Below, in pieces: positions 16,789-37,490 of a DNA stretch of 64,000 bases (positions are counted from its first letter, which is position 1; the number at the start of each line of letters is the position of its first letter). The DNA is taken from positions 285,946 to 349,945 of IMG/VR virus record IMGVR_UViG_3300028898_000252; one strand, written 5' to 3'. This stretch comes from a virus (Duplodnaviria; Heunggongvirae; Uroviricota; Caudoviricetes). The notes beneath the pieces are model-generated. The model saw only the letters and a program-made list of their open reading frames with translations, did no database searches and was not told the origin of the DNA. Made by a program: the position numbers and the translations under genes.

Positions 16789-16895
16789 TAACTGTTTCTT
16801 TTTTTATATCATACTTTCATCATTCATAAAAATTTCCCAAAAAAATTTTTCCCACTTAATTGTGCAACTTCGGTTTCCTATTCCTCGAAATTTGT

Positions 16896-17114
16896 TTTAT
16901 AGCTATTGGGGGTCCTTTGTAAAAAAAATTTCTCCCCAAAAAAATTTTCTCTCCCTGTAATTTGTGGGTTAAAATGAAACTATAAAAGAGTTTAAAATAG
17001 GTTTTCCCAAAAAAAATTTCCCTCCCTGAAGAACGTGGATTCATAAAAAAGAAAACTTTATAGCTATTGGGGGTCCTTTGTAAAAAAATTTCTCCCCAAA
17101 AAAATTTTTTCTCC
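16896..17114. repeat. About 58-bp direct repeat (16896-16954, 17057-17114) in A/T-tract DNA at the left island edge
   Basis: TTTATAGCTATTGGGGGTCCTTTGTA(7-8)TTTCTCCCCA7TTTT..CTCC twice. Confidence 0.9.
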
Positions 17115-17253
17115 TGGGAGAACGTGGATTAGCACGGTATATGCCAGGAATTACTTCAAAAACCCCCTAAAACCGCCCCCTAGGGGCCTCGTTTTTAACC
17201 CCTTGTTTAAGCCAGGGCCCATTTGCGGGTTGAAACCCCAGGCCCTGTATCCA

Positions 17254-17778
17254 TTATGTGGTTTCGATTTTCTTAAAGTCGTCTCCGAATCGAATGCGCT
17301 CACTTGTAACGCATTCGTCTGAATACTTCGAGAGAATCTTTTCGACGGCATCAATTCGGAGGTTGATTGCCTCGAATGTTTCTGTGTAGCGGTGAACGCG
17401 GATTCTGCGAGCCGTACAGGAATAGTTGTTAATCCCTGAATACTTCAATTCGTTTCTGTAACCAGTCACCGCTACTGGTTTACCAATGGGAGTAAGATGC
17501 TCGACATTTTGCTCGCCGTAACGTTCCCAGAACAAGTTTCGCCAGGAATAGCCTGTGCCGTTATCTCCGCTTCCGTAGAGCAAGTCGACTGCCGACATAA
17601 TGAGGTTGCCGATATCGCTGCTCATATCGTTGCAGTTTTTTGGAATTCGTTTTTCTCTATTCGAGATAGGATAGTCAGCTTCGAACAATGCGTTGTGTTT
17701 CATTGCAATTATATCGAGTGCCAACTCGACGATGGTAGAATCGTCCTCGGGAGTAACCTCCGTGAGTTTGTTTTCCAT
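17254..17778 (-). CDS. Hypothetical protein (island cassette)
   Basis: 174 aa, GGGAG RBS, follows element 17824. Confidence 0.75.
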   Translation of the reverse strand: MENKLTEVTPEDDSTIVELALDIIAMKHNALFEADYPISNREKRIPKNCNDMSSDIGNLIMSAVDLLYGSGDNGTGYSWRNLFWERYGEQNVEHLTPIGKPVAVTGYRNELKYSGINNYSCTARRIRVHRYTETFEAINLRIDAVEKILSKYSDECVTSERIRFGDDFKKIETT

Positions 17779-17865
17779 TTGAAATTGTTTCTCCCTTCTG
17801 TCTATCTCTTAGCACAATCCACGAAGGTTTATTTACCTTGCGAGAAGTATGCCAAGGGAAAGATA

Positions 17866-17900
17866 GAAAAGAAAACGACCCTGAGTGTATCAGGGTGGTT
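17866..17900 (-). terminator. Intrinsic terminator
   Basis: ACCCTGA-TACAC-TCAGGGT then CGTTTTCTTTT. Confidence 0.6.
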
Positions 17901-17928
17901 CTCTCGAAACGATCAAAGCGAGTTTGAT

Positions 17929-18168
17929 TCAGGGTGCCCGCTCGAAAACGGTTTCATCGTTGCGTCGAATTCGGAACTCTGCTGCGCTCAGGTGAGCGAA
18001 AGAACCACCGCGCCCGAATTCGGGGTGGGTTCCGTTGACGAGTTGTTTTGCGTAGCGAGCATCCTGCGCGTCGCGAATGGTTGCAAAATCCAACCATTTG
18101 CCATCGCGCTTGATTTGCGCAACGTCATATTCCTTGAAGGTGTATTCCGCGGGCTGTGTTTTGTGCAT
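17929..18168 (-). CDS. Hypothetical protein (island cassette)
   Basis: 79 aa, GAGG RBS, follows element 18214. Confidence 0.7.
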   Translation of the reverse strand: MHKTQPAEYTFKEYDVAQIKRDGKWLDFATIRDAQDARYAKQLVNGTHPEFGRGGSFAHLSAAEFRIRRNDETVFERAP

Positions 18169-18249
18169 AGTTTGAATTCCTCTCTCTGTGAATATGGTTT
18201 ACCACAATTCTTGGAGGTTTATTTACCTTTCAAGAAGTATGCCAGTCGA

Positions 18250-18684
18250 TCAGTCTTCGCTGATATCCTCCTCTGCCATATCTTTCAGATATGATTCGAA
18301 CGAGGGAGCATTCCAATCACATCCGTATTCGTAGTCGCCTCCGCCCTCGTAATCTTCTCGGTTTTCTCGCCTTTTGATGCGATCGAGACATTCGTTGAGC
18401 GTATACTTGCGAAACGACCTGTTTTTTTCTTCGGAGTAGTTCCGCTCTTCGATTTCCAGCGAACGAAAATCGAGTTCAGACTCTTCGGTTTTGAGCCACA
18501 TTTCTTGCTCGTCTTCGAGGGTTTCGTCGATTCCCTCGGCGATTGCTTGCTTCTCGGTAACACCTTGCGGGTTGCTGAATCGCAAAGTCTTTTCTCTGCG
18601 GCTGTTACCGAGAATGCGGTTAAGGGTAAACCTATCGTCAATATCGAGACGAGCAACAAAACCGCGGCGATGGTTGGTTTTCAT
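18250..18684 (-). CDS. Hypothetical protein starting MKTNHRRGF
   Basis: ATG 18684 with GGAAGG RBS, follows element 18728. Confidence 0.7.
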   Translation of the reverse strand: MKTNHRRGFVARLDIDDRFTLNRILGNSRREKTLRFSNPQGVTEKQAIAEGIDETLEDEQEMWLKTEESELDFRSLEIEERNYSEEKNRSFRKYTLNECLDRIKRRENREDYEGGGDYEYGCDWNAPSFESYLKDMAEEDISED

Positions 18685-18769
18685 TCTGTTGATCCTTCCG
18701 TGGTTATCTCTTACCACGTTTGGCTCTGAATTATTTACCTTGCAGGGACCGTGCCATCGCGGATTCTGA

Positions 18770-18816
18770 AAATAAAAAATGGGCTACTCGGGTGCTGGTT
18801 AGGCACTCGGTAGCCC
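18770..18816 (-). terminator. Intrinsic terminator
   Basis: GGGCTAC-CGAGTGC..GCACCCGA-GTAGCCC then ATTTTTTATTTT. Confidence 0.75.
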
Positions 18817-19003
18817 GTGAGCGGAAACGGAATCTCCGTTTATTTGTGGATTGAAGGGAGCACGTCGCGCGCTCAACCTCGGTTGAAGGGTAGGAAACAA
18901 CAGCAAGAGCGACGAATAGGGTTGCGATTGTTTAGCTCCTCTCTGTGTTTAGGTTTAGCACACCCTTGAAGGAATTATTTTCCTTTCAAGAGATATGCCA
19001 GTG

Positions 19004-19129
19004 TTAGCGGTTGCCGTTTTTGAGGTTGAGGGTTTCGGTTGCCTTTGCGATCATTCCACCAGCGACGAGCGCGGCGAACATCATCACGAAGGCGAAAGCT
19101 GCCCCGTTGGCGAACGTGTTAGCGATCAT
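19004..19129 (-). CDS. 41-aa single-TM peptide (not in ORF track)
   Basis: MIANTFANGAAFAFVMMFAALVAGGMIAKATETLNLKNGNR; AAGGA upstream. Confidence 0.55.
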   Translation of the reverse strand: MIANTFANGAAFAFVMMFAALVAGGMIAKATETLNLKNGNR

Positions 19130-19259
19130 GGGTTTGTGTGGTTTCCTTTCGCTGGCGACGAATCACCGCTGCAACCTCAACGATGCTGTAGGTTGTGCGC
19201 GCGATGGCGAGAATCAACAGAACGATCATAGAGAAATGGTTGTCGATGGAGGGTTCCAT
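19119..19259 (-). CDS. 46-aa hydrophobic peptide (not in ORF track)
   Basis: MEPSIDNHFSMIVLLILAIARTTYSIVEVAAVIRRQRK...; GAGG RBS after element 19300. Confidence 0.6.
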   Translation of the reverse strand: MEPSIDNHFSMIVLLILAIARTTYSIVEVAAVIRRQRKETTQTHDR

Positions 19260-19338
19260 TTGTTTTCCTCTCTGTGAGTATGTCTTAACATACCATTGAA
19301 GGATTTATTTACCTTTCAAGAGGTGTGCCAAGGTTTCG

Positions 19339-19569
19339 TCACTGGTCGGAAGGAAACCAACCCTTCACAACGGCGTTGTGGGCAATTCCAAGACGAAACA
19401 CCTGGGATCGTACTCGAATGCCGCTCGAAGCATTGAACACCTTGATTGAGGCATTCAGGGCGTTTGGGGCGGCATTCAGAGCAGCGGCGAACGCCTCGTG
19501 TTCGGTTGCTCCGAAACCGCTAGCGCTCAGTCCCGTTTGATTACGGGTCCATCGAAATTTACCTTGCAT
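19339..19569 (-). CDS. Hypothetical protein
   Basis: 76 aa; TAATG coupling with upstream ORF. Confidence 0.6.
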   Translation of the reverse strand: MQGKFRWTRNQTGLSASGFGATEHEAFAAALNAAPNALNASIKVFNASSGIRVRSQVFRLGIAHNAVVKGWFPSDQ

Positions 19570-19781
19570 TAGTTCATCACCCTTTCAGGTGCGGTTGAGG
19601 GATCGTGACCGAGGTTGAAAGCGGAGCGAAACAACTGTGCTTGCTCGCGCGTATCCGTGAAATGATCGAACACGGCCCCAGTCACGTCGGAGCGAAAACG
19701 GACCCTCCACATTTCACGCGGCGGGCGTTGGTTGCGAAGAAAAAACGCCTTCAACTTTTCGAGAAGTAACTTGTCGAGCAT
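19569..19781 (-). CDS. Hypothetical protein
   Basis: 70 aa; GGAGG RBS; follows element 19846. Confidence 0.7.
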   Translation of the reverse strand: MLDKLLLEKLKAFFLRNQRPPREMWRVRFRSDVTGAVFDHFTDTREQAQLFRSAFNLGHDPSTAPERVMN

Positions 19782-19928
19782 GACAACCTCCGTTCTGTTT
19801 GACCGTTTCGAATTCCCTTGTGAGTATGTCTTATCACACTCAGTTAAGGTTTATTTACCTTTCACAAACCATGCCAAGCACAGTTTATGAAAACTTTGTT
19901 TTCAAGACCTATGCCAGACTTTTGCCGC

Positions 19929-20312
19929 TCATGCAAACTTGCATGCCGACAAGGTTTTCATCACGGAATACATCCTGTCGATGACCGCGGGGACCTTTTT
20001 GTCGTTGTCGTGGTAAAACATGTTTGCGGCGAGAATAACATTTCTAATCGCCTTGCGCTTGTTCATTCCGACCGCGATATGCACCGCACCGCCACGAATT
20101 GCGATTGAACACCTCCAGCCGTGATCGCGTACGGCATCGAAAACAACATTGACAGGATTGACGCGATTGTTATTCAGCAGGTCGACCAATTTTTCGACCT
20201 TCGCGCCCCCGCTGTAAACCTCGATAACGGCGGCTTCGAGCAAGGTATTGAACCTTTGCTCTCTTGCTTCGATGGCTCGAAAGAATGCCTTGAATGATTC
20301 GAATTGTTCCAT
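19929..20312 (-). CDS. Hypothetical protein
   Basis: Start reassigned to MEQFESF with AAAGGG RBS. Confidence 0.65.
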   Translation of the reverse strand: MEQFESFKAFFRAIEAREQRFNTLLEAAVIEVYSGGAKVEKLVDLLNNNRVNPVNVVFDAVRDHGWRCSIAIRGGAVHIAVGMNKRKAIRNVILAANMFYHDNDKKVPAVIDRMYSVMKTLSACKFA

Positions 20313-20494
20313 TGTGAAACCCTTTCGTTGGAGAATGACAGCCGCAGAAATAGGATTTGCACCTACAGTTTCCTCTGTTTTGCAGAGGTTTTGGCCACGA
20401 TTCGGCACGGGACCTATTCCCGTTCTGCGGTATAGACTTGTTAACACAACCTCGAAGGTTTTATTTACCTTTCAAGAGGTGTGCCAACGAAGGT

Positions 20495-20707
20495 TTAGTC
20501 GTGATACCAAACATCCTCGCCGTGAATGTTTTTCGACGGAAAAACAACCGTATCCGTGTCCTCGTTGTGCTTCGTGACAGCGAACATCACCTTTCGCTGA
20601 GCGTTGCGCAGCACCTTGCGAGCAAAGCGCTTGAAACCATTGTGAAAGTGGCGATGGTGGGAGTCCTCGCTGCGAGCGGTGAATCCTCGACGGTGGTTCG
20701 TTTTCAA
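20495..20707 (-). CDS. Basic peptide starting MKTNHRRGF
   Basis: 70 aa, TTG start, GGGAG RBS, follows element 20750. Confidence 0.65.
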   Translation of the reverse strand: MKTNHRRGFTARSEDSHHRHFHNGFKRFARKVLRNAQRKVMFAVTKHNEDTDTVVFPSKNIHGEDVWYHD

Positions 20708-20844
20708 TTCCGTTCTCCCTTCTGTCTAGGTCTTAACACACTCTATCGTGAATTATTTTCCTTTCACGAATCGTGCCAAGGTTGACCAAGAGGCTGTCTC
20801 GGTGGGTTGAGGCATTCAGAATTAATTTCAAAATCTGTGCCGCG

Positions 20845-20874
20845 AAAATAAAAAAGCCCCGATTCGCTCGGGGC
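20845..20874 (-). terminator. Intrinsic terminator
   Basis: GCCCCGA-GCGAA-TCGGGGC then TTTTTTATTTT. Confidence 0.8.
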
Positions 20875-20912
20875 GTGGCGGGTTTGGTTATGTATCCAAA
20901 CCAATTGGTTTC

Positions 20913-21287
20913 TCAATCCTCGTTTTCCGACGAGAACGCGATCGAACGAATTCCGATCTCATGGTAGTTTTTCCATGAGAATGTCAGCCGCTTCGAATCG
21001 TCATCGCAGCCTTTCAAAACGACGTGCGTGCAATCCCCCGATTGCGTGACGACCGAAGCGACCTCCCACAATTGCGAGCCGTGCGCTCGCTTTCCCTTCA
21101 CTTCGAGAATGTCACCAACCTTGACGCGCGAAAGGATGATCCACACGGGATCGCGTCGCGTTCGGTCCGAAACTTGAAATTTTCGTTCGGTCAAGTCATC
21201 GTAGAGGCGGCGAGCCTTCGTGTTTTCATTCGCCCACGCGCGAAACGAACCGATGATTGCCGAGAGGATATCCTTGTTGTTGCTCAT
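20913..21287 (-). CDS. Hypothetical protein (possible SH3-like C-terminus)
   Basis: 124 aa; VKVGDILEV. Confidence 0.65.
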   Translation of the reverse strand: MSNNKDILSAIIGSFRAWANENTKARRLYDDLTERKFQVSDRTRRDPVWIILSRVKVGDILEVKGKRAHGSQLWEVASVVTQSGDCTHVVLKGCDDDSKRLTFSWKNYHEIGIRSIAFSSENED

Positions 21288-21335
21288 GTTTCTTTTCTCT
21301 TTTCTTTTCGTTGAAGTTGATTGAAGGGTTGGTTT

Positions 21336-21710
21336 TCAGAGAGAGAGGGCGAAAGCGATATCGAGAGCAACAGGGGTTTTGTTTTCCTCCGTTACTCCGT
21401 TGTACTTGATCGCGTGTTCCGCGAGGTTGTAGTGGTCAATCAATTCGACCTCGCAAGGTAGGGGAGTGTTGCAGGCGAGCCGCGTAATCGGAGGCATTTT
21501 TTTGTCTCCGAAAAGTTTTACCAACAAAAACTCTGTTCCGTATTGACCAGTGGAGGCGGAACTTGCGGTCAATTGGTAGACCGCAGAAACCTCTTTGCGG
21601 CCTTTCCGAAATGACAGCAAGAAAAACCTTGCAACCTTGACAAACACCGTAATCGAACAACCGAGTGTTTCGGTGTTGATTCGATCACCAACCTTGAAAA
21701 GATGGTTCAT
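21336..21710 (-). CDS. Hypothetical protein
   Basis: Start reassigned to MNHLFKVGD with AAGGGA RBS. Confidence 0.65.
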   Translation of the reverse strand: MNHLFKVGDRINTETLGCSITVFVKVARFFLLSFRKGRKEVSAVYQLTASSASTGQYGTEFLLVKLFGDKKMPPITRLACNTPLPCEVELIDHYNLAEHAIKYNGVTEENKTPVALDIAFALSL

Positions 21711-21866
21711 TCGTTTTTTCCCTTGTTGCTTGACGAAAACCTTGTCGGCGACTGGCTTATCGACAATAATTTTCTTGGGGTTGCGAGACAGGGTGATTCC
21801 TGGCCAGTTTCTATCTCTTATCACAGCTTTCAGCATTGAATTTTCCTTTCAAGCGCTATGCCAAGA

Positions 21867-22049
21867 TTACCTTTTCCGTTGTTTGATTTTCGAACCAGAG
21901 GGCACCACGAGAAACCATTCGAACCTGTTGACAATTGCATTCCAAACCTTGTATCTCCGAATCACTCTCGTGTAGAGAGCACCTTGACGCAGGGTTTCGA
22001 GGTATGAGTCGAACGGACCCAGGTGGTTTTCTGAATAACAGTCGCCCAT
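21867..22049 (-). CDS. Hypothetical protein
   Basis: 60 aa; AAGGTGA RBS; follows element 22101. Confidence 0.65.
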   Translation of the reverse strand: MGDCYSENHLGPFDSYLETLRQGALYTRVIRRYKVWNAIVNRFEWFLVVPSGSKIKQRKR

Positions 22050-22136
22050 TCGTTCACCTTCCCTTGCTGGCGTGTCTACCTCATATCACGATTGATTCTG
22101 TTTTATTTTCCTTGCAGGGATCATGCCAGCAGTGGA

Positions 22137-22355
22137 CTACTTCGAAACCTCAACTCCAATAATCAAAACCATCGGAGGCTCGCCTACAGAAGTCTCGAAA
22201 CCAGAAACTTTCGTCTGGAAAACTTCATCCTTCTCTGGATTATCCATGAGAGCTTCATTCAGTCGGAGGATCAACCTTTGCGCTTCATCACGCGAAAGGC
22301 CGATAACCAAACGATTTTTGAAAATCTCGTCTGCGGTTTTTTCCCAGTGCGCCAT
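22137..22355 (-). CDS. Hypothetical protein
   Basis: MAHWEK start, AAGGA RBS; follows element 22399. Confidence 0.65.
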   Translation of the reverse strand: MAHWEKTADEIFKNRLVIGLSRDEAQRLILRLNEALMDNPEKDEVFQTKVSGFETSVGEPPMVLIIGVEVSK

Positions 22356-22490
22356 GATCTTTTCCTTTCCGTGGTTATGATCTAACACATTCAGCTCTGA
22401 ATTATTTACCTTGCAGGGATCATGCCAACCACGGGAGATTGAGAATTATTTTCAAATTGCTGCGGCACAAAAAATGCAGGGCCAAAAACG

Positions 22491-22530
22491 ATAAAAGGGC
22501 AACCCGCTTGTTAAAGCGAAGTTGCCCCTT
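22491..22530 (-). terminator. Hairpin/terminator after the tRNA-ncRNA operon
   Basis: GGGCAAC-TTCGCTT..AAGCGG-GTTGCCC then TTTTAT. Confidence 0.65.
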
Positions 22531-22569
22531 TGGGTTTATTTACTTTGCAAACCGTGTGCCAACGTTTAG

Positions 22570-22644
22570 CGTCTCTGATAGGACTTGAACCTATGACCTA
22601 CCGCTTAGAAGGCGGTCGCTACTATCCAACTGAGCTACAGAGAC
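22570..22644 (-). tRNA. tRNA-Arg(UCU)
   Basis: GTCTCTG/CAGAGAC acceptor, TAGCTCAGTTGGATAG D arm, ACCGC-CTTCTAA-GCGGT, GGTTCAAGTCC; CCA not encoded. Confidence 0.92.
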
Positions 22645-22649
22645 AAAGC

Positions 22650-22732
22650 GTCTCGTAACGTTACTGTGCGCCGCTTACACTACGGTTTTGAGGCCGCGGA
22701 GAGTCGAACTCCGTCTGCAACGTTTCCGAGAC
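22650..22732 (-). ncRNA. Circularly permuted tRNA-like RNA (YrlA/Y-RNA-like)
   Basis: Order stem - T arm (CGGAG-TTCGACT-CTCCG) - closed acceptor hairpin - TA - D arm (GTGT-AAGCGGC-GCAC) - stem. Confidence 0.7.
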
Positions 22733-22919
22733 TGAAACAGTCTACAGGAGCACTGTTTCGATGTGCAGTCGATACGCAATCCGTCTCGTAACGTCATCGC
22801 GACGTTGGATTGTCCACTATTGGCAATCAACCTTTCGAGGTTGACTCTCGCTCTCGCCGCGAGAAGGCTAGTGGTGCTGAGAGCATATAATACCGACATA
22901 TCCCCTCGGTTAACGGGTT

Positions 22920-22988
22920 GACTGAGCGGTTTAACTGTTTAACCTAACAGGTTACCCTGTGCAGGATTCGCACCCGCATATCTCAGTC
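22920..22988 (-). ncRNA. Circularly permuted tRNA-like RNA (YrlA/Y-RNA-like)
   Basis: GACTGAG-ATAT-GCGGG TGCGAAT CCTGC-ACAGG GTAA CCTGT-TA-GGTT AAACAGTTA AACC-G-CTCAGTC. Confidence 0.72.
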
Positions 22989-23197
22989 GGTGTGATGGTG
23001 GTTTGTATTGTTTCACTAGCATTCAGTAACCATCGGTACCGAATGCCAGCGGCCACGATTTATTTAACCCAACACCGAGCATTGTGGCTTGTTTGGTATT
23101 GGACCACGGAATTATTCTCCGTGGATTTGCTTTCCTTAAATGGTGGAAAGCACGACAGCGTTTACGACTCCATACTATATGTCGCCTCTAGCATGAA

Positions 23198-23262
23198 TGG
23201 TGCTCTCATATGGACTCGAACCAATGCCTAGCAGCGCGGTTAAGCGCTCTAGGTATGAGAAC
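23198..23262 (-). ncRNA. D-armless tRNA-like RNA with encoded ACCA
   Basis: GTTCTCAT/ATGAGAGC-ACCA, CCTAG-AGCGC-TTAACC-GCGCT-G-CTAGG, TGG-TTCGAGT-CCA. Confidence 0.7.
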
Positions 23263-23387
23263 ATGTTTTATGTTAAGGAATCTATCGTTTTGACGTTGTT
23301 GCCCCGATCGCCTCGCTCTCTCTGTCTACATTCTAGCGCGACCGAGCAAGGTTTATTTACCTTTCAAGTATCGTGCCAGGGAAAAGG

Positions 23388-23516
23388 GTACCGCCGCGGG
23401 AATCGAACCCGCTTTAGACGTTCTAGCCAACGTCTAAATCTCCAAGGTAGAACCCCATAGTTTTATCGGTGCTTGACTAGAGCGCCCGCTATGTTGTCTA
23501 ACTTTAGGTAGCGGTA
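23388..23516 (-). ncRNA. 129-nt tRNA-like RNA (acceptor + T arm + two long hairpins)
   Basis: TACCGCT/GGCGGTA, GCGGG-TTCGATT-CCCGC, TTTAGACGTT/AACGTCTAAA. Confidence 0.65.
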
Positions 23517-23519
23517 TAG

Positions 23520-23602
23520 TGCCAGCAACGGGACTTGAACCCGTATGCCCTTGCGGACGGCGGATTTTGAATCCGCTGCGTATTCCATTCCGCCACGCTG
23601 GC
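23520..23602 (-). tRNA. tRNA-Leu(CAA)
   Basis: GCCAGCG/TGCTGGC-A, GCGGA-TTCAAAA-TCCGC, long variable arm GTCC-GCAA-GGGC, GGTTCAAGTCC. Confidence 0.93.
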
Positions 23603-23949
23603 ATTTGTTCTGCAATCTCGTTTGCAGAGGACGATACCGAGACACATTCTAATATGCGGCTCGATATTAACACGCTGGGATGACACAATGATCATCCGTG
23701 TGGTACAGCTTAGTTTGATATGTGTACCTAGTTCACAGCCCGCGGTTTTCATTGGCTGCAAAACAAGTTGTGCCAGTCACTTAGCCCGTGTTTGCAGGAT
23801 ACGCGCACGCCGACTAGCTTACGCTCGCGTTTCCGACGTATGGGATATATTACCGTTCACTCGCTTTCCTTTTCGTTGCTGCCCGCCCCATGAATCTCTC
23901 TTACCACACCCGAGCAAGGTTTATTTCCCTTGCAAGCGCTATGCCAGGG

Positions 23950-24189
23950 TCAGAGCGCGACCACCGCGAGGGTTTCGCGACCGTTTTCCCACGGGCAGAG
24001 CCACGCTTTCGCGTAGCCGTTGGGTGCTTGCACGATCACGGGATTACGGGGCGACGCCCGTTTCGCGCGGCAAGCGCGGACGATTTTGTCCACCCCAGAA
24101 TCGATAGAATAGTGAGTCACGAATGTAGCTGCCGTTTCGTTGAACTCGAACACCACTGCTTTCGAATCGTTCACTTTTGCATCCTCCAT
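23950..24189 (-). CDS. Hypothetical protein
   Basis: 79 aa between elements 24221 and 23916. Confidence 0.6.
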   Translation of the reverse strand: MEDAKVNDSKAVVFEFNETAATFVTHYSIDSGVDKIVRACRAKRASPRNPVIVQAPNGYAKAWLCPWENGRETLAVVAL

Positions 24190-24254
24190 CCCCCATAATC
24201 TTATGTTAGTACAACCGAGCAGGGTTTATTTACCTTGCACAAGCCATGCCAGAG

Positions 24255-24617
24255 TTAGACCTTGGCGGAATCCTCCGCTCGACGAATAACCCACCATTCG
24301 GTTCCCGCGCCGTCGCGGTCGATTTCACCCACAAGGATGAATTCATTGCTGAGCATATCCATAAACACGCCCTCCCATGCCCCGCGGGTTGTTCGAACGG
24401 ACACACCGAGGATTCTGGAAAACTCAGCCGCAGCCGCAGATTTTCTGACTACGGACGAAAGATTTGTCTTCCGAACGTCGATCTTTCCGCCGCCGCTCAA
24501 TTCGAGCTCGAAACCCTCTTGGGTTTGCTCGATCGCAGTCACGGGAATGAATTCGAGATTCAACCGTTGACGAGCGACGATATTCAAATCGAGACCATCC
24601 GACACAATGCAGTCCAT
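24255..24617 (-). CDS. Hypothetical protein
   Basis: 120 aa, AAGGG RBS, follows element 24669. Confidence 0.7.
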   Translation of the reverse strand: MDCIVSDGLDLNIVARQRLNLEFIPVTAIEQTQEGFELELSGGGKIDVRKTNLSSVVRKSAAAAEFSRILGVSVRTTRGAWEGVFMDMLSNEFILVGEIDRDGAGTEWWVIRRAEDSAKV

Positions 24618-24710
24618 TGTTTGAAACCCTTTCTTCGTTGGTGTGTTCTCTGTATAGCAGACCCTAGCAAGGTTTATTTACCTTGCAATCGGTATGCCAA
24701 GGATGATTAG

Positions 24711-24781
24711 TAGGTCCAGAAGGAATCGAACCTTCGTTAACTGGTTAAAAGCCAGCTACTCTACCATTGAGTTATGGACCC
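24711..24781 (-). tRNA. tRNA-Lys(UUU)
   Basis: GGGTCCA/TGGACCT-A, GCTGG-CTTTTAA-CCAGT, GAAGG-TTCGATT-CCTTC. Confidence 0.93.
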
Positions 24782-25130
24782 TTAGAGCGCCGCTGTTTAC
24801 CAACGATTCCCCGTATGCGGGGCAACCTCGGGACAGCGGGCGGTTTTGCACCATTCTTTTATTCGTTTTAGGCCGAATCACACCCGTTAGGTAGCTATCG
24901 GCCTATCGTTTACGACGATACATCAGCGTTTCCTCTTCGCTATATTATTAGAACCTACGCATGCGCGCGGTAGGCTTATGGGTTCGAGGTAGTGAATGCG
25001 GAATGACCCGCGCCCGTATCGTGTTGGCAGCGTGCGGTTTCGCTCGGTATCCGCTGCTAGTTTTACCGATCGACTAGCAACCGCTCAGTGGAGCGGCTGA
25101 CAAGGTGTGTGTAGCACGACTCGGCAGGGT

Positions 25131-25469
25131 TTATTTACCTTGCACCGTCTGTGCCAGCGGGACGCCGCCCGACCACGGGGCATCGTCGATCATTTCGAAA
25201 ATGGTTTGAATTTCCTCGACTGAAAGAGTGGTGTCGTGATACCACTCCGTCAACCTTCGGTCGAAAGCGTCGGCAAGGTCGCGGGTTTCAGCGAATTCGA
25301 ATTCGACCTCTTCGAACATCGAATTGTAAAACCTCGGAGGTTGCTCGCCATTTGCCGCGCGGTGTTCGATGATCGCCTGCTCGCATTCTCCCACGAATTC
25401 GGCGAGTTGTTCTCGCGAATAACCGCGGAGTTTCAGCGTTTGCAATTCTGAGAGATTCTTCGTCGACAT
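25131..25469 (-). CDS. Hypothetical acidic protein; stop codon supplied by the next element
   Basis: MSTKNL start; ends LAQTVQGK-TAA, the translation of element 25126-25156. Confidence 0.65.
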   Translation of the reverse strand: MSTKNLSELQTLKLRGYSREQLAEFVGECEQAIIEHRAANGEQPPRFYNSMFEEVEFEFAETRDLADAFDRRLTEWYHDTTLSVEEIQTIFEMIDDAPWSGGVPLAQTVQGK

Positions 25470-25546
25470 TTTCTTTCGTTGCTCCTCTCTGTGGGTATGT
25501 CTTACCACACCCTTGAAGGAATTATTTACCTTGCAAGCGGTGTGCC

Positions 25547-25579
25547 AAAAAAAATAGGCTTGGAATAGATCCGAAGCCT
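25547..25579 (-). terminator. Intrinsic terminator
   Basis: AGGCTT..AAGCCT then ATTTTTTTT. Confidence 0.65.
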
Positions 25580-25769
25580 CTCACCATTCGTTATATCGCC
25601 TTCAACCGCAAGTTAACTTAATAACTCGCTGAATGGCCGCACTCCCAGGCATCGCGCTATGGACTAGCCTTATGGTTGCGCTTTGTTATGGCCGCTTGCA
25701 CGGTTTGGTTGAAGCAATGCCGTTATCCAACGGCGGTATTGGCTTGACAGAGAATCCTGTTCTCTGTCA
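25580..25769 (-). ncRNA. Candidate structured ncRNA downstream of tRNA-Ile
   Basis: No minus-strand ORF; long-range pairing TTGCTTCAACC/GGTTGAAGGCGA plus two hairpins. Confidence 0.45.
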
Positions 25770-25846
25770 TGGTAGGCGTAAATGGACTCGAACCATTGAC
25801 CCCACGGTTATAAGCCGTGTGCTCTAACCGACTGAGCTATACGCCC
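25770..25846 (-). tRNA. tRNA-Ile(UAU)
   Basis: GGGCGTA/TACGCCT-ACCA, CACGG-CTTATAA-CCGTG, AATGG-TTCGAGT-CCATT. Confidence 0.9.
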
Positions 25847-26037
25847 AACGAATGCGGCCTCGCCTTATTCAGCGCCCGCGGTGAATGCTAACCAGCTTGT
25901 CACGGCCAGTGCATTATTTTACCTGCTTTCCGTATCGTTGCGGGTTGAGGTTTTGAGGCAACCTTGCTCGTTGCCCCGTGAGTATGTCTTAGCACGACTC
26001 GGCAGGGTTTATTTGCCTTGCACCGTTCGTGCCAGGG

Positions 26038-26346
26038 TTACGCCAGCTTCGACCACGCCAGCGCGAACAAACGCACGGCGAAAGCCAGGGCGAAAACCGC
26101 AGCGCTCACCCTTGCAATCCCCAGCGCGTTTTTTGACGTTCCGTAACCGTACTCGGACGCAAGAAAACTGTTTGTCAGCCTCTCAGCGATCATGGAAACC
26201 ACGAAAAGCGATCCAAACAACAACAGGTGTTGTCCTGCGGAGAGCGAGAGAAACATCCCGAAAAACGTTCCGATCGCGCCCGAAGCGATGGCGAGCACAA
26301 GCAACACAGCCGCCGCGACTGCGGCGAAAACCTTACCAAAGGTCAA
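26038..26346 (-). CDS. Small multi-pass membrane protein
   Basis: About 3 hydrophobic segments; TTG start just after the upstream stop (start uncertain). Confidence 0.6.
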   Translation of the reverse strand: MTFGKVFAAVAAAVLLVLAIASGAIGTFFGMFLSLSAGQHLLLFGSLFVVSMIAERLTNSFLASEYGYGTSKNALGIARVSAAVFALAFAVRLFALAWSKLA

Positions 26347-26348
26347 GG

Positions 26349-26729
26349 TTACGACCTTCGCGAGTGTGACGCGCGCTGGAGAATCGGAAGACCAAGAACA
26401 CCACTCGGTCCAACCTTTGCAAACGCATCGGTTTGCTCGTTGCCGCGTTCGCCAGGGACGAAAAGCGTCACCTCGGCATAGCGGTTGCTGTGCCCCGCGC
26501 AGCACTTGGTTTCACTCGAAACCGTTGCGCGCCAGTCAGAAGCGGAAAAAAACTTTTCCGTTTCCTTTCCCGCAGCGTCGTGTCGGATCACTTCGACCGC
26601 GTAGCGCTCCAATTGGAGCCGTTCGCGGAGTTCATCGGCGTGCATTTCCGCCGCTGTGCGTGTGTCGAGCTCCATTCCTTCATCGAAGGAAACATCGCCA
26701 CTGTCTGAACCATTCACTTCGATCGTCAT
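26349..26729 (-). CDS. Hypothetical protein
   Basis: 126 aa, GGAGGT RBS, follows element 26797. Confidence 0.7.
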   Translation of the reverse strand: MTIEVNGSDSGDVSFDEGMELDTRTAAEMHADELRERLQLERYAVEVIRHDAAGKETEKFFSASDWRATVSSETKCCAGHSNRYAEVTLFVPGERGNEQTDAFAKVGPSGVLGLPILQRASHSRRS

Positions 26730-26831
26730 TGCCTACCTCCATGTAGGGTTGCTAGAGGTTATCTCCAGCAACAACTTTTGAATAACACAACCCTCGAAGG
26801 TTTATTTACCTTGCAGGGATCATGCCATTCT

Positions 26832-26892
26832 TGGAGGGCTTGGGAGAATCAAACTCCCCGCAAAGTTTTTGCTTTGCGAACCATTAAGCCCT
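26832..26892 (-). ncRNA. Minimal tRNA-like RNA (acceptor + T arm + one hairpin, TCCA end)
   Basis: GGGCTT/AAGCCC-TCCA, GGGAG-TTTGATT-CTCCC, GCAAAG-CAAAAA-CTTTGC. Confidence 0.55.
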
Positions 26893-26897
26893 TGCGG

Positions 26898-27380
26898 TCA
26901 CTCCGCTAGTGCCGCCTGAATCTCGGAAAGTTTCTTCTCGAAGGTGAAACGAGTTTCGAAACGCTCGCACACTTCGCGCAATTCCTCGAAACCACTCGCG
27001 ATTTGTTCGAGCGAATCGGGGTCAACCTCGTTGGGCGCGGTGCGGTCGACCAGCTTCGCATACTCGGTCAACTCGATTCCGAATTGAGCGCCGCGCCAAT
27101 CTCCGTTAGCGTCGCGGTAGTTGAGCACACGCTTTTCGAGCGCGTACATGATCGCGCCGTCCACATCACCCGCCTTTTGCGCGGTGCGCAGCTCGACCAG
27201 CTTCCGATACGACGCGCGCAGGTTTTCCACACCCGCGACGATCATATCAAACTTCTCGTCGACATTCGCGTTTCGAAACGCCGCCAAGTTTTCGAGCGGC
27301 TTGTGCTTGCACGCGTCGAACGAGCGCGTGGCTTCGAGAAGAGCCGCCTTATCTGCAACAACAACAACGTTCGTTCCCAT
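26898..27380 (-). CDS. Hypothetical helical protein
   Basis: MGTNVV start; GC3-rich codons; follows element 27467. Confidence 0.7.
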   Translation of the reverse strand: MGTNVVVVADKAALLEATRSFDACKHKPLENLAAFRNANVDEKFDMIVAGVENLRASYRKLVELRTAQKAGDVDGAIMYALEKRVLNYRDANGDWRGAQFGIELTEYAKLVDRTAPNEVDPDSLEQIASGFEELREVCERFETRFTFEKKLSEIQAALAE

Positions 27381-27612
27381 TTTTTTCTTTTGCTCCAATG
27401 TTTGAAAAACCGTTCACTTGCTGTGTGAGCACCGTTGCTCACACTCTCTACTTAGCACAACTCGACAAGGTTTATTTACCTTGCAGGGTTCATGCCAAGC
27501 GTGGCACTTCCGCCGAGGGTTGCACTCGGCATAGCTATTGCTTGTTAGCTTTAGCTATCGTGTCCTGGTGACACCGAAAGTGTTTTGTTCTGCCCCTTTC
27601 GGGGCGAGGGTT

Positions 27613-28236
27613 TCAACCCTCGGCGGTTTCGTCGTCGGTCGCAGCGTCGAGCGCTTCGAGCGCGGGCGAATTGCTCAGGTCGGTTGCAGCCGCGCCAGCA
27701 AACCGCGACGGAGGCGCGGAAAGCGCGACGACACGCGCCGTGCGCGCAGGCTTCGCGGGCTTGGGAGCCTCGGGAGCCTTGGGTTTGATTCCGAGCATCG
27801 CAGCGACCGAGGTTTGCGGCGCGTTGGGATTGATTCGCGCGATTCCCGCGCACTCCATTGCAGCGCGGAAGGTTTCGATCAGTGACAGCGCCTCGATCGC
27901 GCAACCCGCGCTATCGCGCGAGTGGAGCACGAAAACGTTGTCGCGACCGATGACCTCACTGCCGTACACGACCTCGCCGCGAACGATGCGAAGCAACAGC
28001 GTCGAGCCCGCCGTGTCCGAGTTTGGCCCGCCGCGCGCGGCGCGCACGCCTTCGAGCAGCGCGAGCGCCGAGCCGCCTTCGTCATCGGTCAAGCGGAACA
28101 TCACGGGCTCTTGTGGCTCGATCCACAGATCAGACTTCGACGCGTCGCCGCCCTCGCCGCACTGCTCGCGAACGTGCGCAACGAGCGCCGCGAGAACCAT
28201 TCCAGCGACAACCGAACGAACAGAATTCTTGCTCAT
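27613..28236 (-). CDS. Hypothetical protein with A/P-rich disordered C-terminus
   Basis: MSKNSV start; follows element 28332. Confidence 0.7.
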   Translation of the reverse strand: MSKNSVRSVVAGMVLAALVAHVREQCGEGGDASKSDLWIEPQEPVMFRLTDDEGGSALALLEGVRAARGGPNSDTAGSTLLLRIVRGEVVYGSEVIGRDNVFVLHSRDSAGCAIEALSLIETFRAAMECAGIARINPNAPQTSVAAMLGIKPKAPEAPKPAKPARTARVVALSAPPSRFAGAAATDLSNSPALEALDAATDDETAEG

Positions 28237-28331
28237 GTTTTTTTCTCTCTTTTCTTTCGTTTTGTGAACTCGCGAGCACCGCAACCGTGCGGTGCATCAT
28301 CTCTTGTGAATCTCTCTTAGCACGACTCGGC

Positions 28332-28362
28332 AAGGTTTATTTACCTTGCACCGTCTGTGCCA
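28332..28362 (-). promoter_or_regulatory. Representative sigma54-type -24/-12 promoter
   Basis: TGGCACAGACGGTGCAAGGTAAATAAACCTT; GG-N10-GC; upstream of the ORF starting at 28236. Confidence 0.75.
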
Positions 28363-28532
28363 ACCTAACAACCATCGAAACTCACGTTCGCAGGTTAGGT
28401 GGGATGGTACGAATGTTGTTTGTTCGTGCCGTCCCGTCTACTCTGCAACCGATACCCTGTCATGTGCTCTGTCTAGCACACTCTCGGAAGGTTTATTTAC
28501 CTTTCAAGTATCGTGCCAGGACAGTTTCAGGC

Positions 28533-29054
28533 TCAGTCGTCATCGGCAGCATCGAAAAACTTGCCGATCGCGAGGAATTCACCGCGAGTGCAAGCGGCGT
28601 GCCACTCAGGATTCGAGCCCGTCCCGTTTGGAATCGGGCTGAAATTCAATTTCTGTACCATCGTGCGGCGTGCTTTGAATTCGGCGAATCCTGGGAATTC
28701 AACCGAAGCAAGCACCGCGCCGTTGTTTTTCGACCAGTCGTAAAAGTACCGTTGTTTTCCGACGGCACCGTCGTCGGCCAGTGGGGCAACAACGAGACAG
28801 CTTGTTCCTCGCGCCCCGCGTGAGGAATGATTCCCCAGCAAAATGAATCGCCGCTTGTTGATTCGCACAGTTGAATACTTTGGCGCTGCTTTTGCAGCAA
28901 GCACCGTATCCCGCTGAAACTCGCTGAATTCATCGTAGTCAGGCGAATCCCGCTTGATTCGCCCCTGGCGAGCACCTTCGCCTGCGGTACAGTCAAGGTC
29001 GAGCCTTTCAGGCTCGACAACATTGTCATTGTCATTGTCGTTTTCGTTTGCCAC
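28533..29054 (-). CDS. Hypothetical protein
   Basis: GTG start with GAGGAG RBS; NDNDND microrepeat; follows element 29098. Confidence 0.7.
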   Translation of the reverse strand: MANENDNDNDNVVEPERLDLDCTAGEGARQGRIKRDSPDYDEFSEFQRDTVLAAKAAPKYSTVRINKRRFILLGNHSSRGARGTSCLVVAPLADDGAVGKQRYFYDWSKNNGAVLASVEFPGFAEFKARRTMVQKLNFSPIPNGTGSNPEWHAACTRGEFLAIGKFFDAADDD

Positions 29055-29296
29055 TCGCTGTGCTCCTCTCTGTGAATCTCTCTTAGCACGACCGACCAAG
29101 GTTTATTTACCTTGCAGGGTTTGTGCCAACAACCTTGGTCGTTGGAGTTTCGAGCGAAACGCGGCGATCGTCCGTCCCGCCCTGTGTTCTCTGTCTAGCA
29201 CAACCCAAGGTGCTTTATTTACCTTGCAAGCATCATACCAGGGTTGGGCGTTTGGCGCGGTGCGAGCCTCTATCGACCGCGCGTACACGCGTGCGT

Positions 29297-29370
29297 AGCA
29301 TAAACCATGCCAGGTAAGACTACCTAAAAAAACCGTTGGCATGATACTTGCAAGTGGCATGGTTTATGCC
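29297..29370. promoter_or_regulatory. Divergent cluster of three GG-N10-GC boxes at the right island edge
   Basis: Minus 29297-29312; plus 29337-29352 and 29355-29370; perfect 15-bp inverted repeat 29298-29312/29355-29369. Confidence 0.75.
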
Positions 29371-30121: not shown

Positions 30122-31300
30122 TTAATTCTTTTTAGAGTTAAGCTGCGAAAGGTTTTCTTCAAGGGCTTGGTCAATAACTTGCAAAGTATCTCTAAACTGT
30201 TGAGTAAAACTATCAGTAAGGGCTTTGAATTCTTTCTTGAGATTCACATTATCGTTTTCGGCGGAATACCATTCGATTCTGAATCTATCAATAACTTCTG
30301 AATACTGGGAAAGGAATTCAAGTCCTTCGCAGATTGATTTATCAAACACTTCAATTGGATAGTTTCTCAGGTCGAGGCCGTTTGCCTTGAACAAGTTTTC
30401 GTAGGCAAACTTTGCAAGAAACTTTCCAATGAAGCCGAATTGATCTGTAACCTCTTCTTCGTTGTTTATTTCAATAGAAGGAATATAAACAGTCCATTTA
30501 TCAAGTGGAGAAATAAGAGTTTTGTTATCGTCTCTTGCCGATGATCCTGCGTCGGCGAATCGCATAATAACAAATGGTCCATATTGACCATCCCCAGAAT
30601 AAACTTGATAACCAACCATTCCTTTCGGAAAAGGATTCTTTCCTCGCTTTGCCGCGACAGAATAGTTGATTCCAAGGTTCATGTTTCGATAATCAGACCT
30701 TCTTTTCGATTCTTTCCATTCTGCCTTTTTAATATTGTTTTCAATTTCGATTTGCTGAAGGTGTTTGTTGTACAGATTCATAATCTCTTCATCGGCATCA
30801 ACTTCAACAAAAAGACCATCCTTTTTAAAGGATTTTCCTTTGTAGAAAACAGGAGGCAAATAAACATTACTTGTTTGAATGTGTTCAGCTGCAAACTTTT
30901 TTTCTTCTTTAAGATAGTAGGTGATAACAAGACTGTCATTATTCAAACCATCATAGTAATATGAATTCATTTCAACATTCACAATTGGATTTGATGGGTC
31001 GATAATATATTTCTCTGTGACTGAAATCCAGCCATATTTGTTGACGATTGGTTCTTGTGCCTGAAACATTTCAAGATACTTTTTTTGGATTGCCTCGAAT
31101 TCTTCTTTCTCGTGCAAGTAATACACAGGGGAATTTGAACATGTTTCATAGTTTTTCAATTCCTCTTCGGTCATTTCGTTTCTGCGGCGAACTCTCTTTT
31201 CGACAAGTTCGCTGTAATTCAGTTTTTTTCTCAATTCCTCGTGAGCTTTGTATGCAGGGTTTTCATCCGTTCGGAACACACTCAACGACTTTGCGACCAT
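30122..31300 (-). CDS. Hypothetical protein under the outlying element 31407
   Basis: 392 aa, GGGAG RBS. Confidence 0.8.
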   Translation of the reverse strand: MVAKSLSVFRTDENPAYKAHEELRKKLNYSELVEKRVRRRNEMTEEELKNYETCSNSPVYYLHEKEEFEAIQKKYLEMFQAQEPIVNKYGWISVTEKYIIDPSNPIVNVEMNSYYYDGLNNDSLVITYYLKEEKKFAAEHIQTSNVYLPPVFYKGKSFKKDGLFVEVDADEEIMNLYNKHLQQIEIENNIKKAEWKESKRRSDYRNMNLGINYSVAAKRGKNPFPKGMVGYQVYSGDGQYGPFVIMRFADAGSSARDDNKTLISPLDKWTVYIPSIEINNEEEVTDQFGFIGKFLAKFAYENLFKANGLDLRNYPIEVFDKSICEGLEFLSQYSEVIDRFRIEWYSAENDNVNLKKEFKALTDSFTQQFRDTLQVIDQALEENLSQLNSKKN

Positions 31301-35947: not shown

Positions 35948-36379
35948 TCACCAAAAAAACAACGTTTTGGATTTGTCTAATATTGAAATGTAGCGTGTAA
36001 CAGGTGATTTAGAGCGACCAGGTTCTTTTAAATTGAATTTTGTGGTTACAAAGTCTGGTTTAATTTGATAATCATATTCTTCATATTCAAAGTCATTTTT
36101 TGAATTTGGTTCAAGCGAACCGAGTTTTATTTCGGTAATTTTATCTGTGGAACCAAGAAGTATCATTTTAATATTTGTGTCAGGATCGGGTTCACAATGT
36201 CCATTGCTGAAATAAATCATTTTTGCTGTGTTGTCGCGCGGAATGCTCCATCCAGTATTTGTTTTTGGATTATACTCTTTTTCGGGATGTTTAAGAATCC
36301 AATTTATAAAATCTTGTCTTGTATTAAACTCCCTAACAAAATCAACAACATCTTCGTCTGTTTTGATGAACTTATTCAT
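35948..36379 (-). CDS. Stand-alone copy of the EYNxxTxTGW domain
   Basis: DFINWILKHPEKEYNPKTNTGW. Confidence 0.7.
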   Translation of the reverse strand: MNKFIKTDEDVVDFVREFNTRQDFINWILKHPEKEYNPKTNTGWSIPRDNTAKMIYFSNGHCEPDPDTNIKMILLGSTDKITEIKLGSLEPNSKNDFEYEEYDYQIKPDFVTTKFNLKEPGRSKSPVTRYISILDKSKTLFFW

Positions 36380-37437
36380 TGGATGATTCCTCCTCCGACA
36401 ACATGTTTATCATGTTTGTAAAACACGATCGATTGCCCTTTTGACACACCATAAACAGGTGTTTCGAATTCAACAAGGAAAGTACCATCTTCATTCTTTA
36501 CAAGAGATTTAACTCTCACCGCGTCGGTTTGATACCTACAAACCGCATAAAGATCCTCGATCCGAAAGTCTGTATCGTGAAATTCAACGTTTTTAATTTG
36601 AAATGAATTGAAATAAATATCATTGTGATCGCCCGCAACAACCGTATTAGAATCAGAAAGAACCTTGAGAGCATATTTTGGTTTTCCATCTTTCGAGGAA
36701 ATGGGCAACCTCTGCCCAACAACAACCCTAGATAGCCCGCCGTGGTTTCCTAGTTTATTTCCGCTTTGATCCACGATCGCGCCTGCGGCGATCCCCACGC
36801 CACGAGCAGAGAGATAATCGCTTGCCCGTTTACCTTCGAGGAAACAAAGATCAACGCTGTCAGGCTTTTTGGCAATATGAATTCCCATCTCTTCTGCAAG
36901 TTTTCTTACTTCAGGTTTTGTCATCTTTCCAAGAGGGAACAAAAGTCTTGAAAGAATATTTTTGGGAATATCCCAAAGAAAATAACTTTGATCTTTTGAT
37001 CGATCATCTCCTCTTGTAAGCAATCCATTTTCAATGTTTGCATAATGTCCAGTGGACACATAATCTGCTTTATATTGAATTGCCGCTTGAACCAGCGAAG
37101 GAATTTTAATAAGGTTATTACAGGTTACACAAGGATTAACAACTTCTCCATTCTTATGTCCTTCGATATATTTATTGATAACTTCCGAAGCAAAAGATTT
37201 TCTTCTCGAAAACACAAGGTGTTCGATTCCAAGAAGATCGCAAACTTGTGTTGCGTCAATTGTATCGGAGAAGGAACAACATCCTTTTCCGTCTTCAGAC
37301 GCATATGCAAACAAGGACAAAGTTACCCCGATTACTTCGTATCCCTGTTGTTTTAATAGTGCCGCTGCAACAGCGGAATCAATCCCACCCGACAAACCAA
37401 CAATTACTTTGCCCTTGTTTTGTCCTGCGGATCGCAT
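36376..37437 (-). CDS. mnmA: tRNA U34 2-thiouridylase MnmA
   Basis: SGGIDS PP-loop, GCCS, NPCVTCN, TGHYA, KDQSYFL, KPDSVDLCF, GQSIVFY; start reassigned to ATG 37437. Confidence 0.96.
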   Translation of the reverse strand: MRSAGQNKGKVIVGLSGGIDSAVAAALLKQQGYEVIGVTLSLFAYASEDGKGCCSFSDTIDATQVCDLLGIEHLVFSRRKSFASEVINKYIEGHKNGEVVNPCVTCNNLIKIPSLVQAAIQYKADYVSTGHYANIENGLLTRGDDRSKDQSYFLWDIPKNILSRLLFPLGKMTKPEVRKLAEEMGIHIAKKPDSVDLCFLEGKRASDYLSARGVGIAAGAIVDQSGNKLGNHGGLSRVVVGQRLPISSKDGKPKYALKVLSDSNTVVAGDHNDIYFNSFQIKNVEFHDTDFRIEDLYAVCRYQTDAVRVKSLVKNEDGTFLVEFETPVYGVSKGQSIVFYKHDKHVVGGGIIQ

Positions 37438-37443
37438 ATTACC

Positions 37444-37472
37444 GTGATAAGCCCCGCGAGCGGGGCTGTCAA
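37444..37472 (-). promoter_or_regulatory. sigma70-like promoter with palindromic spacer; probable leaderless mnmA mRNA
   Basis: TTGACA-GCCCCGCTCGCGGGGCT-TATCAC-6 nt-ATG. Confidence 0.7.
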
Positions 37473-37490
37473 CGACAAGAGTCAAATATT

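Follow-up and report, generated by a model that had tools for sequence, protein, structure and literature searches.

A GC-rich island that carries four tRNA genes in an AT-rich jumbo phage genome may be a conserved start-up module for tRNAs and structured RNAs

Phage tRNAs that match phage codon use, and differences in codon use between early and late phage genes, are known (PMC5683454; Sf14 analysis, PMC12482277). In this study, we analyzed a 64,000-nucleotide stretch of viral DNA (the window; positions 285,946 to 349,945 of the 390,884-bp record IMGVR_UViG_3300028898_000252), in which four tRNA genes lie within a GC-rich island. The record has direct terminal repeats at its ends, a completeness of 100% (CheckV), and a GC content of 32.9%; it is a jumbo phage. 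As with the codon-compensating tRNAs of T4, T5, and jumbo phages, these tRNAs serve codons that are heavily used by the main gene set; most carry U34 and read A-ending codons, and the set is large (21 tRNAs by ARAGORN) in a large AT-rich phage. The locus differs from those systems in that one genome holds two codon dialects, a 12-kb block whose open reading frames (ORFs) have a third-position GC content (GC3) of 0.60 and almost no NTA codons (ATA, TTA, CTA, and GTA) and the rest of the genome with a GC3 of 0.22, and in that the four tRNAs are encoded in the block that has no need of them, under a class of element that is used nowhere else. Our literature search found no account of a conserved intragenomic codon split of this size with its own element class and tRNA-RNA fusion units, nor of phage promoter arrays that depend on sigma54 or of phage tRNA islands rich in GC. 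We give an even chance to the reading that the four tRNAs are part of a conserved start-up module that delivers tRNAs and structured RNAs to the AT-rich bulk of the genome.

The island spans positions 17150 to 29300 of the window and comprises about 25 short units, all on the minus strand, as delimited by the GC profile and GC3. Its GC content is 45 to 59%, compared with 26 to 40% on either side, and the whole-genome GC profile contains no second stretch of this kind anywhere in the 390,884 bp; the AT-rich remainder makes up 97% of the genome. The four tRNA genes, likewise on the minus strand, encode tRNA-Ile (25770 to 25846; anticodon UAU, which reads AUA; CCA encoded), tRNA-Lys (24710 to 24781; UUU, which reads AAA and AAG), a class II tRNA-Leu (23519 to 23602; CAA, which reads UUG), and tRNA-Arg (22569 to 22644; UCU, which reads AGA and AGG). 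ARAGORN and Rfam RF00005 agreed on exactly these four in the window, with RF00005 scores of 73.1, 73.5, 54.1, and 62.6 bits, respectively, over the full model length (gathering score, 29), and low-threshold ARAGORN runs added only noise. The initial annotation had placed these four tRNAs in a GC-rich island, and ARAGORN, Rfam, and the GC profile confirm this for the window; 17 of the 21 tRNAs of the genome are encoded elsewhere, in AT-rich DNA at 12.5 to 61.5 kb. In diverged relatives, which are metagenomic lineages reached by protein searches, all four anticodons are kept in L090 (identities of 95% for Ile, 99% for Lys, 97% for Arg, and 72% for Leu; the tRNA-Lys gene was also read as matching at all 72 bases), the tRNA-Ile(UAU) of L219 is 71% identical and retains its anticodon, and the tRNA-Lys stems of L213 carry paired compensatory changes. 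All four are predicted canonical elongator tRNAs. Outside the window, at genome positions 61455 to 61527 (plus strand), there is a tRNA with a CUA anticodon, labelled "Pyl" by ARAGORN, that would be an amber suppressor; standard-code ORFs nonetheless span 88% of the genome that carries it.

Codons were counted over the island ORFs (2,249 codons) and the rest of the genome (112,860 codons). Per 1,000 codons, ATA occurs 1.3 times in the island and 23.9 times elsewhere, AAA 26.2 and 83.4 times, and AGA 8.0 and 20.2 times, which makes these codons 18-fold, 3-fold, and 2.5-fold rarer in the island, respectively; TTG is equally frequent in both (15.1 and 13.8). By bulk-to-island ratio, the four cognate codons rank 2, 7, 11, and 28 of 61, and random four-codon sets reached the mean ratio of the cognate set in 1.4% of draws. 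The initial annotation had stated that AAA, AGA, and ATA are abundant in the AT-rich flanking genes and had proposed a comparison with the island genes; the contrast holds for ATA, AAA, and AGA and fails for TTG, which is not enriched in the bulk. In this comparison, the island ORFs stand in for the genes of the host, and with this proxy three of the four tRNA codons are enriched in the bulk. It is well supported that the island tRNAs would work for the bulk, and not for the island ORFs, because the island ORFs need almost no AUA, UUA, CUA, or GUA and few AAA or AGA codons and the bulk uses them heavily.

Only the NTA codons are avoided in the island beyond the expectation from GC3, and among the four cognate codons this applies to ATA alone. 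Three of the 106 island Ile codons are ATA (25% predicted by third-position composition), and in both the window and L090 the NTA codons make up 2 to 6% of their families, compared with 18 to 41% predicted. AAA, AGA (within AGR), ACA, CCA, GCA, and TCA match the third-position prediction in both lineages, and GAA and CAA are overused in the island despite its high GC3. The observed/expected ratio of TA in the island is 0.16 at codon positions 2 and 3; the two remaining frames have ratios of 0.44 and 0.51, and the noncoding leaders that precede the tRNAs have a ratio of 1.05. Because TA is depleted at positions 2 and 3 and not in the leaders, NTA avoidance works on codons rather than on the DNA dinucleotide. 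Two phage tRNAs read ATA and one reads CTA. Within the genome, TTA ranges in 10-kb bins from 32 to 49 per 1,000 codons at 100 to 300 kb and from 12 to 32 at 320 to 390 kb and 1 to 100 kb. Some AT-rich genes are nearly free of ATA and TTA, namely, the head gene and the MnmA gene (both described below), window positions 53425 to 53964, and genome positions 20796 to 21398 and 389192 to 389836.

The switch from AT-rich to GC-rich DNA is common to three diverged lineages, L090, L219, and L222. In L090, a 12.4-kb ENA scaffold whose proteins are 41 to 82% identical to those of the window, the switch is at the same place, and the scaffold carries 18 copies (variant TGCAAGGTTGATAA) of the repeated element described below, together with all four tRNAs in unchanged order. 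In L219 (JGI), the gene order is MnmA, a 282-aa gene, and the head gene (52% identical), past which GC rises, elements appear, and three successive tRNA-Ile(UAU) units run to the contig end. In L222, where the head gene is 32% identical, an AT-rich flank is followed by DNA of 57% GC with TGGCAY-N5-(T/A)TGC(A/T) cores. Where the window and L090 share an amino acid residue, 55% of four-fold degenerate sites carry the same base, and the GC content of such sites (GC4) is 0.66 and 0.67, respectively, in island genes and 0.23 and 0.30 in adjacent AT-rich genes. Since a foreign block under the AT pressure of the genome should have decayed, this maintained contrast suggests that the island composition is probably kept by selection. 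Judged from these sequence comparisons, the module is ancestral and constrained. Nearer relatives, at 88 to 95% nucleotide identity, have gained or lost whole units exactly at elements (window positions 22129 to 22427 are missing in L130, 26828 to 28518 in L132, and a 120-aa unit in L213), and the more distant L129 has homologous units in a different order. A pattern scan of metagenomes returned mostly single chance matches, the real relatives being only L129 to L132, L150, and L151; viral contigs with a domain in common with a 1,416-aa protein, among them one of 322 kb, have neither island nor element. Sequencing runs from wastewater or rivers, such as SRR32414319 (PMC11984125), contain relatives. 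An assembly chimera was considered and rejected, because assemblies of four other runs contain the island at 100% identity and contigs of 50 kb to 1 Mb also encode one of its proteins; L132 and L090, moreover, cross the junction.

Stable or large noncoding RNAs adjoin phage tRNA genes in other systems, among them the species 1 and 2 RNAs of T4 and the GOLLD and ROOL RNAs. The island resembles these systems in that it has four noncoding units of 0.4 to 0.8 kb, each consisting of a conserved structured RNA and then the tRNA that ends the unit, probably on one transcript; here too, tRNA processing could set the ends of the RNAs. The RNAs of the island differ in that they match neither GOLLD nor ROOL in Rfam, are about 190 to 730 nt long, and are modular, with tRNA-like pieces. 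All lie on the minus strand and comprise an element and a leader, namely, 188 nt before tRNA-Ile (25847 to 26034), an architecture that is kept in L090, L092, and the three L219 units; 375 nt without an ORF before tRNA-Lys (24782 to 25156), with about 90% of positions conserved and nine compensatory pairs across four lineages; 344 nt of conserved noncoding sequence before tRNA-Leu (23603 to 23946); and 734 nt before tRNA-Arg (22645 to 23378). The last of these contains tRNA-like modules, the repeat D12, and a T-arm plus acceptor with an encoded CCA at about 23195 to 23270, and long invariant blocks of the tRNA-Arg unit are common to three lineages. A further noncoding module follows tRNA-Ile (25548 to 25769, minus strand); in L090 it is a separate unit after tRNA-Arg, where positions 10018 to 10261 match window positions 25739 to 25496 at 89%. 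The leaders are 85 to 95% conserved in L090, far above the conservation of synonymous sites, and because of this difference we read them as functional RNAs. They match no Rfam family above threshold (only a weak YrlA-like match at 22918 to 22988, 25 bits, E = 0.1), and matches to GenBank phages are confined to the tRNAs themselves. A hairpin motif, UAGGYCGAUARCU...GUGAnUCGRCCUAAAAC, occurs once in the Lys unit of the window and twice in relatives.

Every unit of the island is headed by one copy of an element, TGGCAY-N5-yTGMAAGG-TAAATAA-(about 12 nt)-GTGNTA. There are 26 copies on the minus strand between 17829 and 31435 (0.12 expected by chance), 25 of them in the island and one before the AT-rich head gene. 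The element was found nowhere else in the 391-kb genome and, in either variant, nowhere in IMG/VR outside this genome, and a search of the bulk revealed no intergenic repeat comparable to it. The preceding ORF usually stops 4 to 9 nt short of the next element, and a Shine-Dalgarno site and start codon follow about 25 nt downstream of it. About 18 of the units contain small orphan ORFs, which have strong Shine-Dalgarno sites. At 25131 to 25156, an upstream 112-aa ORF stops at the TAA within the TAAATAA box; the equivalent L090 box, TTGATAA, supplies TGA and then TAA in the frame of that ORF, and the AT-rich box may also be a stop signal for upstream ORFs.

The described system closest to the element is the sigma54 (RpoN) promoter, with the consensus TGGCAC-N5-7-TTGCT (PMC12316311). 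TGG (-26 to -24) and TG (-14 to -13) are invariant in all 26 window sites, with a spacing of 5 nt throughout, and the GG/-24 and GC/-12 boxes agree with the sigma54 consensus in sequence and spacing. Relatives with as little as 32% protein identity still have this core, whereas the sequence downstream of it varies; in the most distant relatives, only the -24 and -12 boxes remain. Because the two best-kept boxes fit sigma54 and are the sole survivors in distant relatives, the -24/-12 promoter reading is favored, and we put the probability that the element is a sigma54-type promoter at about one half. The array differs from known sigma54 promoters in its 26 copies within 14 kb, in position -12, which is C in 16 of 26 sites and A (giving GA) in the other 10, in the lack of a phage sigma54 or activator gene, and in the additional invariant boxes AAGG, ATAA, and GTGNTA and the palindromic form of the element. 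Copies lie as close as 112 bp to each other, which leaves no room for separate enhancers. Neither a multisubunit nor a T7-type RNA polymerase was detected in the genome, and the large ORFs contain no beta-prime-like DxDGD motif; for this reason, the phage probably uses the host RNA polymerase. One sigma70-family gene, with region 2 only, is at about 77.5 kb of the genome, between 77.2 and 78.1 kb.

Terminator-like hairpins occur at only three places, all read on the minus strand: at 17186 to 17164, the downstream end of the island; at 20874 to 20856; and at about 22484 to 22528, where the short unit P15 after tRNA-Arg contains a hairpin plus T-run that was read from the sequence and is not listed by the simple hairpin scan that gave the first. 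Most unit-to-unit junctions have no terminator. At the downstream border of the island, 16830 to 17140, there are three or four copies of GGGGTCCTTTGTAAAAAAAATTTCTCCCCAAAAAAATTTT, spaced about 71 to 89 bp apart, and gene orientation switches there. Tandem Repeats Finder called nothing at this left border, these copies included. Candidate roles for them are a terminator region, a bend in the DNA, an origin, and a packaging site.

In the mechanism that we propose for the start-up module, the island ORFs would be translatable by the host's own tRNA pool, and the dense elements would give a burst of short transcripts, whose cleavage by RNase P and processing at the 3' end would free the tRNAs together with their upstream RNAs. 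Together, the four island tRNAs and the 17 encoded elsewhere, with Lys-UUU, Glu-UUC, and Gln-UUG modified by MnmA, would then provide more capacity for reading the AT-rich genes. This retains part of the two-step program of the initial annotation, in which GC-rich cassettes first supply tRNAs and the AT-rich bulk is then translated: the codons of the tRNAs lie in the bulk and the island and its tRNA set are conserved in relatives, and the program applies best to AUA, weakly to AAA and AGA, and not to UUG. A bolder version, which we hold only tentatively and would not back as the probable one, is that the two codon dialects form a timing device, in which an NTA-free boot block, readable by the naive host and driven by a dense sigma54-type promoter array, would install tRNAs (readers of AUA, AAA, and AGA) and new structured RNAs before the AT-rich 97% of the genome could be translated efficiently, the GC content of the block being kept by selection and not by ancestry. 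A precedent for such control is bldA of Streptomyces, where the rare TTA codon and tRNA-Leu(UAA) gate late genes. Here, similarly, one tRNA for a rare A-ending codon would time a gene class, and NTA codons are nearly absent from one class; the control is hypothetical here, however, and a TTA-reading tRNA is missing from the phage.

Several observations weigh against the start-up module and its promoter array. The AT-rich tRNA cluster contains a second Ile-UAU (about 75% identical to the island copy) and a second Lys-UUU (about 72%); because both are duplicated there, the island copies are not the sole supply. The scarcity of AAA and AGA in the island is no greater than GC3 explains, and for TTG the island and the bulk do not differ. 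The codon with the largest bulk-to-island ratio is TTA (rank 1); island ORFs avoid both it and GTA, yet the phage encodes no tRNA for either. The noncoding leaders have a GC content of 49 to 54% and amino acid use in the island is shifted as well, so that synonymous codon choice alone leaves the composition of the island unexplained. That island codon usage is host-like is an assumption, and early expression of the island, ahead of the rest of the genome, is a plausible proposal. With regard to the element, a sigma54-type promoter depends on an activator ATPase; searches of the phage genome found neither a sigma54 gene nor an AAA+ activator, both of which the host could provide, and a few copies also fit a sigma70 -35/-10 pattern (TTGGCA, 16 nt, AATAAT); that the element is a promoter for another sigma factor is rather unlikely. 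The element is, furthermore, an imperfect palindrome, whose arms match TGGCAY to GTGNTA, including a conserved G-U pair, and TGCAAGG to CCTTGC. Predicted folding is stronger in the sense orientation (mean z = -3.1), and there are weak signs (arm-swap test, p about 0.01) of a match between each left arm and its own right arm; RNAalifold found no consensus structure in an alignment of 67 elements, and pairs counted at fixed columns showed no covariation. That the element is mainly an RNA or single-stranded-DNA hairpin is possible, although we would not expect it.

Among explanations that dispense with the start-up module, the strongest holds that the island tRNAs protect against host anticodon nucleases or tRNA degradation during infection, as replacements or decoys, with codon supply as a side effect and composition unrelated. 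tRNA-Lys(UUU) is the classic target of PrrC and PARIS, and the tRNAs of phage T5 counter such systems. The duplicates of Lys-UUU and Ile-UAU, which differ clearly in sequence and look redundant for codon supply, fit this explanation, as do the tRNA-like mimic modules within the leaders. It is favored also by an RNA ligase gene in the window (51191 to 52288, minus strand; PF09414 and a PHA02142 OB domain; TIGR02306-like, below the cut-off) and by L222, where a gene with weak RNA ligase similarity (2067 to 2687) immediately precedes the head gene; these genes may point to RNA repair. However, the anticodon loops look canonical by eye (CUUUUAA, CUUAUAA, CUUCUAA, and UUCAAAA), with no escape-type change evident, and the recurrent island tRNA is Ile-UAU, with three copies in L219, and its codon is avoided by island ORFs more specifically than any other; we know of no nuclease that targets tRNA-Ile(UAU). 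We regard counter-defense as an unlikely account of the island tRNAs.

Another proposal is that the island is a foreign or semiautonomous cassette array, integron-like or of the T4 type, with its GC content derived from its origin and its tRNAs as passengers. The relevant T4-type structures are PeSLs, the promoter-stem-loop cassettes of the hyperplastic regions of T4-type phages. The island resembles them in its small orphan ORFs, which are flanked by a repeated promoter-plus-hairpin unit and are gained, lost, and shuffled at the repeats; it differs in the sequence and promoter type of the element, in forming a compositionally distinct conserved block, and in its tRNA/RNA units. The repeated imperfect palindrome that bounds the units favors a cassette origin, as do gains and losses of entire units precisely at elements in close relatives and the different unit order in more distant ones. 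So do scars resembling an excised hairpin, in which the outer boxes are all that is left (at about 17150, TGGCAT-N5-GTGCTA, and at about 29310, TGGCAT-N6-TGCTA), and the orphan status of all the ORFs, which have no family match in Pfam or PHROGs and no paralogues. On the other hand, no tyrosine recombinase (PF00589) match was found in the genome, the ends of the element (TGGCAY and GTGNTA) are not the attC core sites (RYYYAAC and GTTRRRY), an AT-rich native gene has the same element in all lineages, and the tRNA/RNA units are the most conserved part, with their order kept. GC4 has, in addition, stayed high through substantial synonymous divergence, with no decay toward the 0.23 of the genome, and the tRNAs decode the codons of the bulk and not those of the cassettes. 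A cassette array is, on this evidence, improbable. Similarly improbable is that GC-richness is a by-product of RNA structure and dense regulatory elements, or of a local mutational or repair bias linked to transcription or recombination, with no link to tRNA supply: the GC content of the leaders, the overrepresentation of CpG in the island (observed/expected, 1.36, compared with an underrepresented 0.84 in the bulk; 1.32 and 1.03 in L090), the evident recombination between elements, and the agreement of AAA and AGA with GC3 speak for it, but the frame- and codon-specific avoidance of NTA would not be expected from mutational bias, and the overuse of GAA and CAA also points to codon selection.

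The island is flanked upstream by AT-rich genes. The head gene (30122 to 31300, minus strand; 392 aa), which has its own element copy, encodes the most widely conserved protein of the locus, with homologues at 30 to 91% identity; it contains one ATA codon and no TTA codon. Its product has no Pfam match, no usable Atlas match, and no fold match from a low-confidence model (pLDDT 58). The MnmA gene, for a tRNA 2-thiouridine(34) synthase, is at 36376 to 37485 on the minus strand (PF03054, E = 5.5e-65). The match is full length (NF001138, 324.3 bits, cut-off 284; TIGR00420, 276.1 bits, cut-off 236.95), and the SGGIDS PP-loop and the two conserved cysteines in NPCVTC and DLCF, read by eye, are present; the protein is predicted to be an intact equivalog. 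All three of its substrate types, Lys-UUU, Glu-UUC, and Gln-UUG, are encoded by the phage. In the initial annotation, MnmA matured the Lys-UUU supplied by the island, and the predicted enzyme would suit this role; its gene, however, is not headed by the island element and lies outside the island, in AT-rich DNA 5 kb upstream of the island head. MnmA is near the island head in two lineages, the window and L219. The suggestion that MnmA could guide host prediction failed: its bacterial homologues, from a pattern-based and hence biased sample, are at most 40% identical (best, 33 to 40%) and are scattered over many phyla, so no host was assigned. Among GenBank phages, the searches gave nothing beyond MnmA matches of at most 38% identity and short domain matches, and they revealed no cultured relative.

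The usual explanation for phage tRNAs invokes a single gap in codon use between phage and host; at this locus, the gap lies within one genome and is conserved in diverged relatives. The locus also offers a dense promoter-like array of an unusual kind and tRNA-fused noncoding RNAs that fall outside known families above threshold, and it is a natural, clonable system for asking whether tRNA supply gates phage gene classes.

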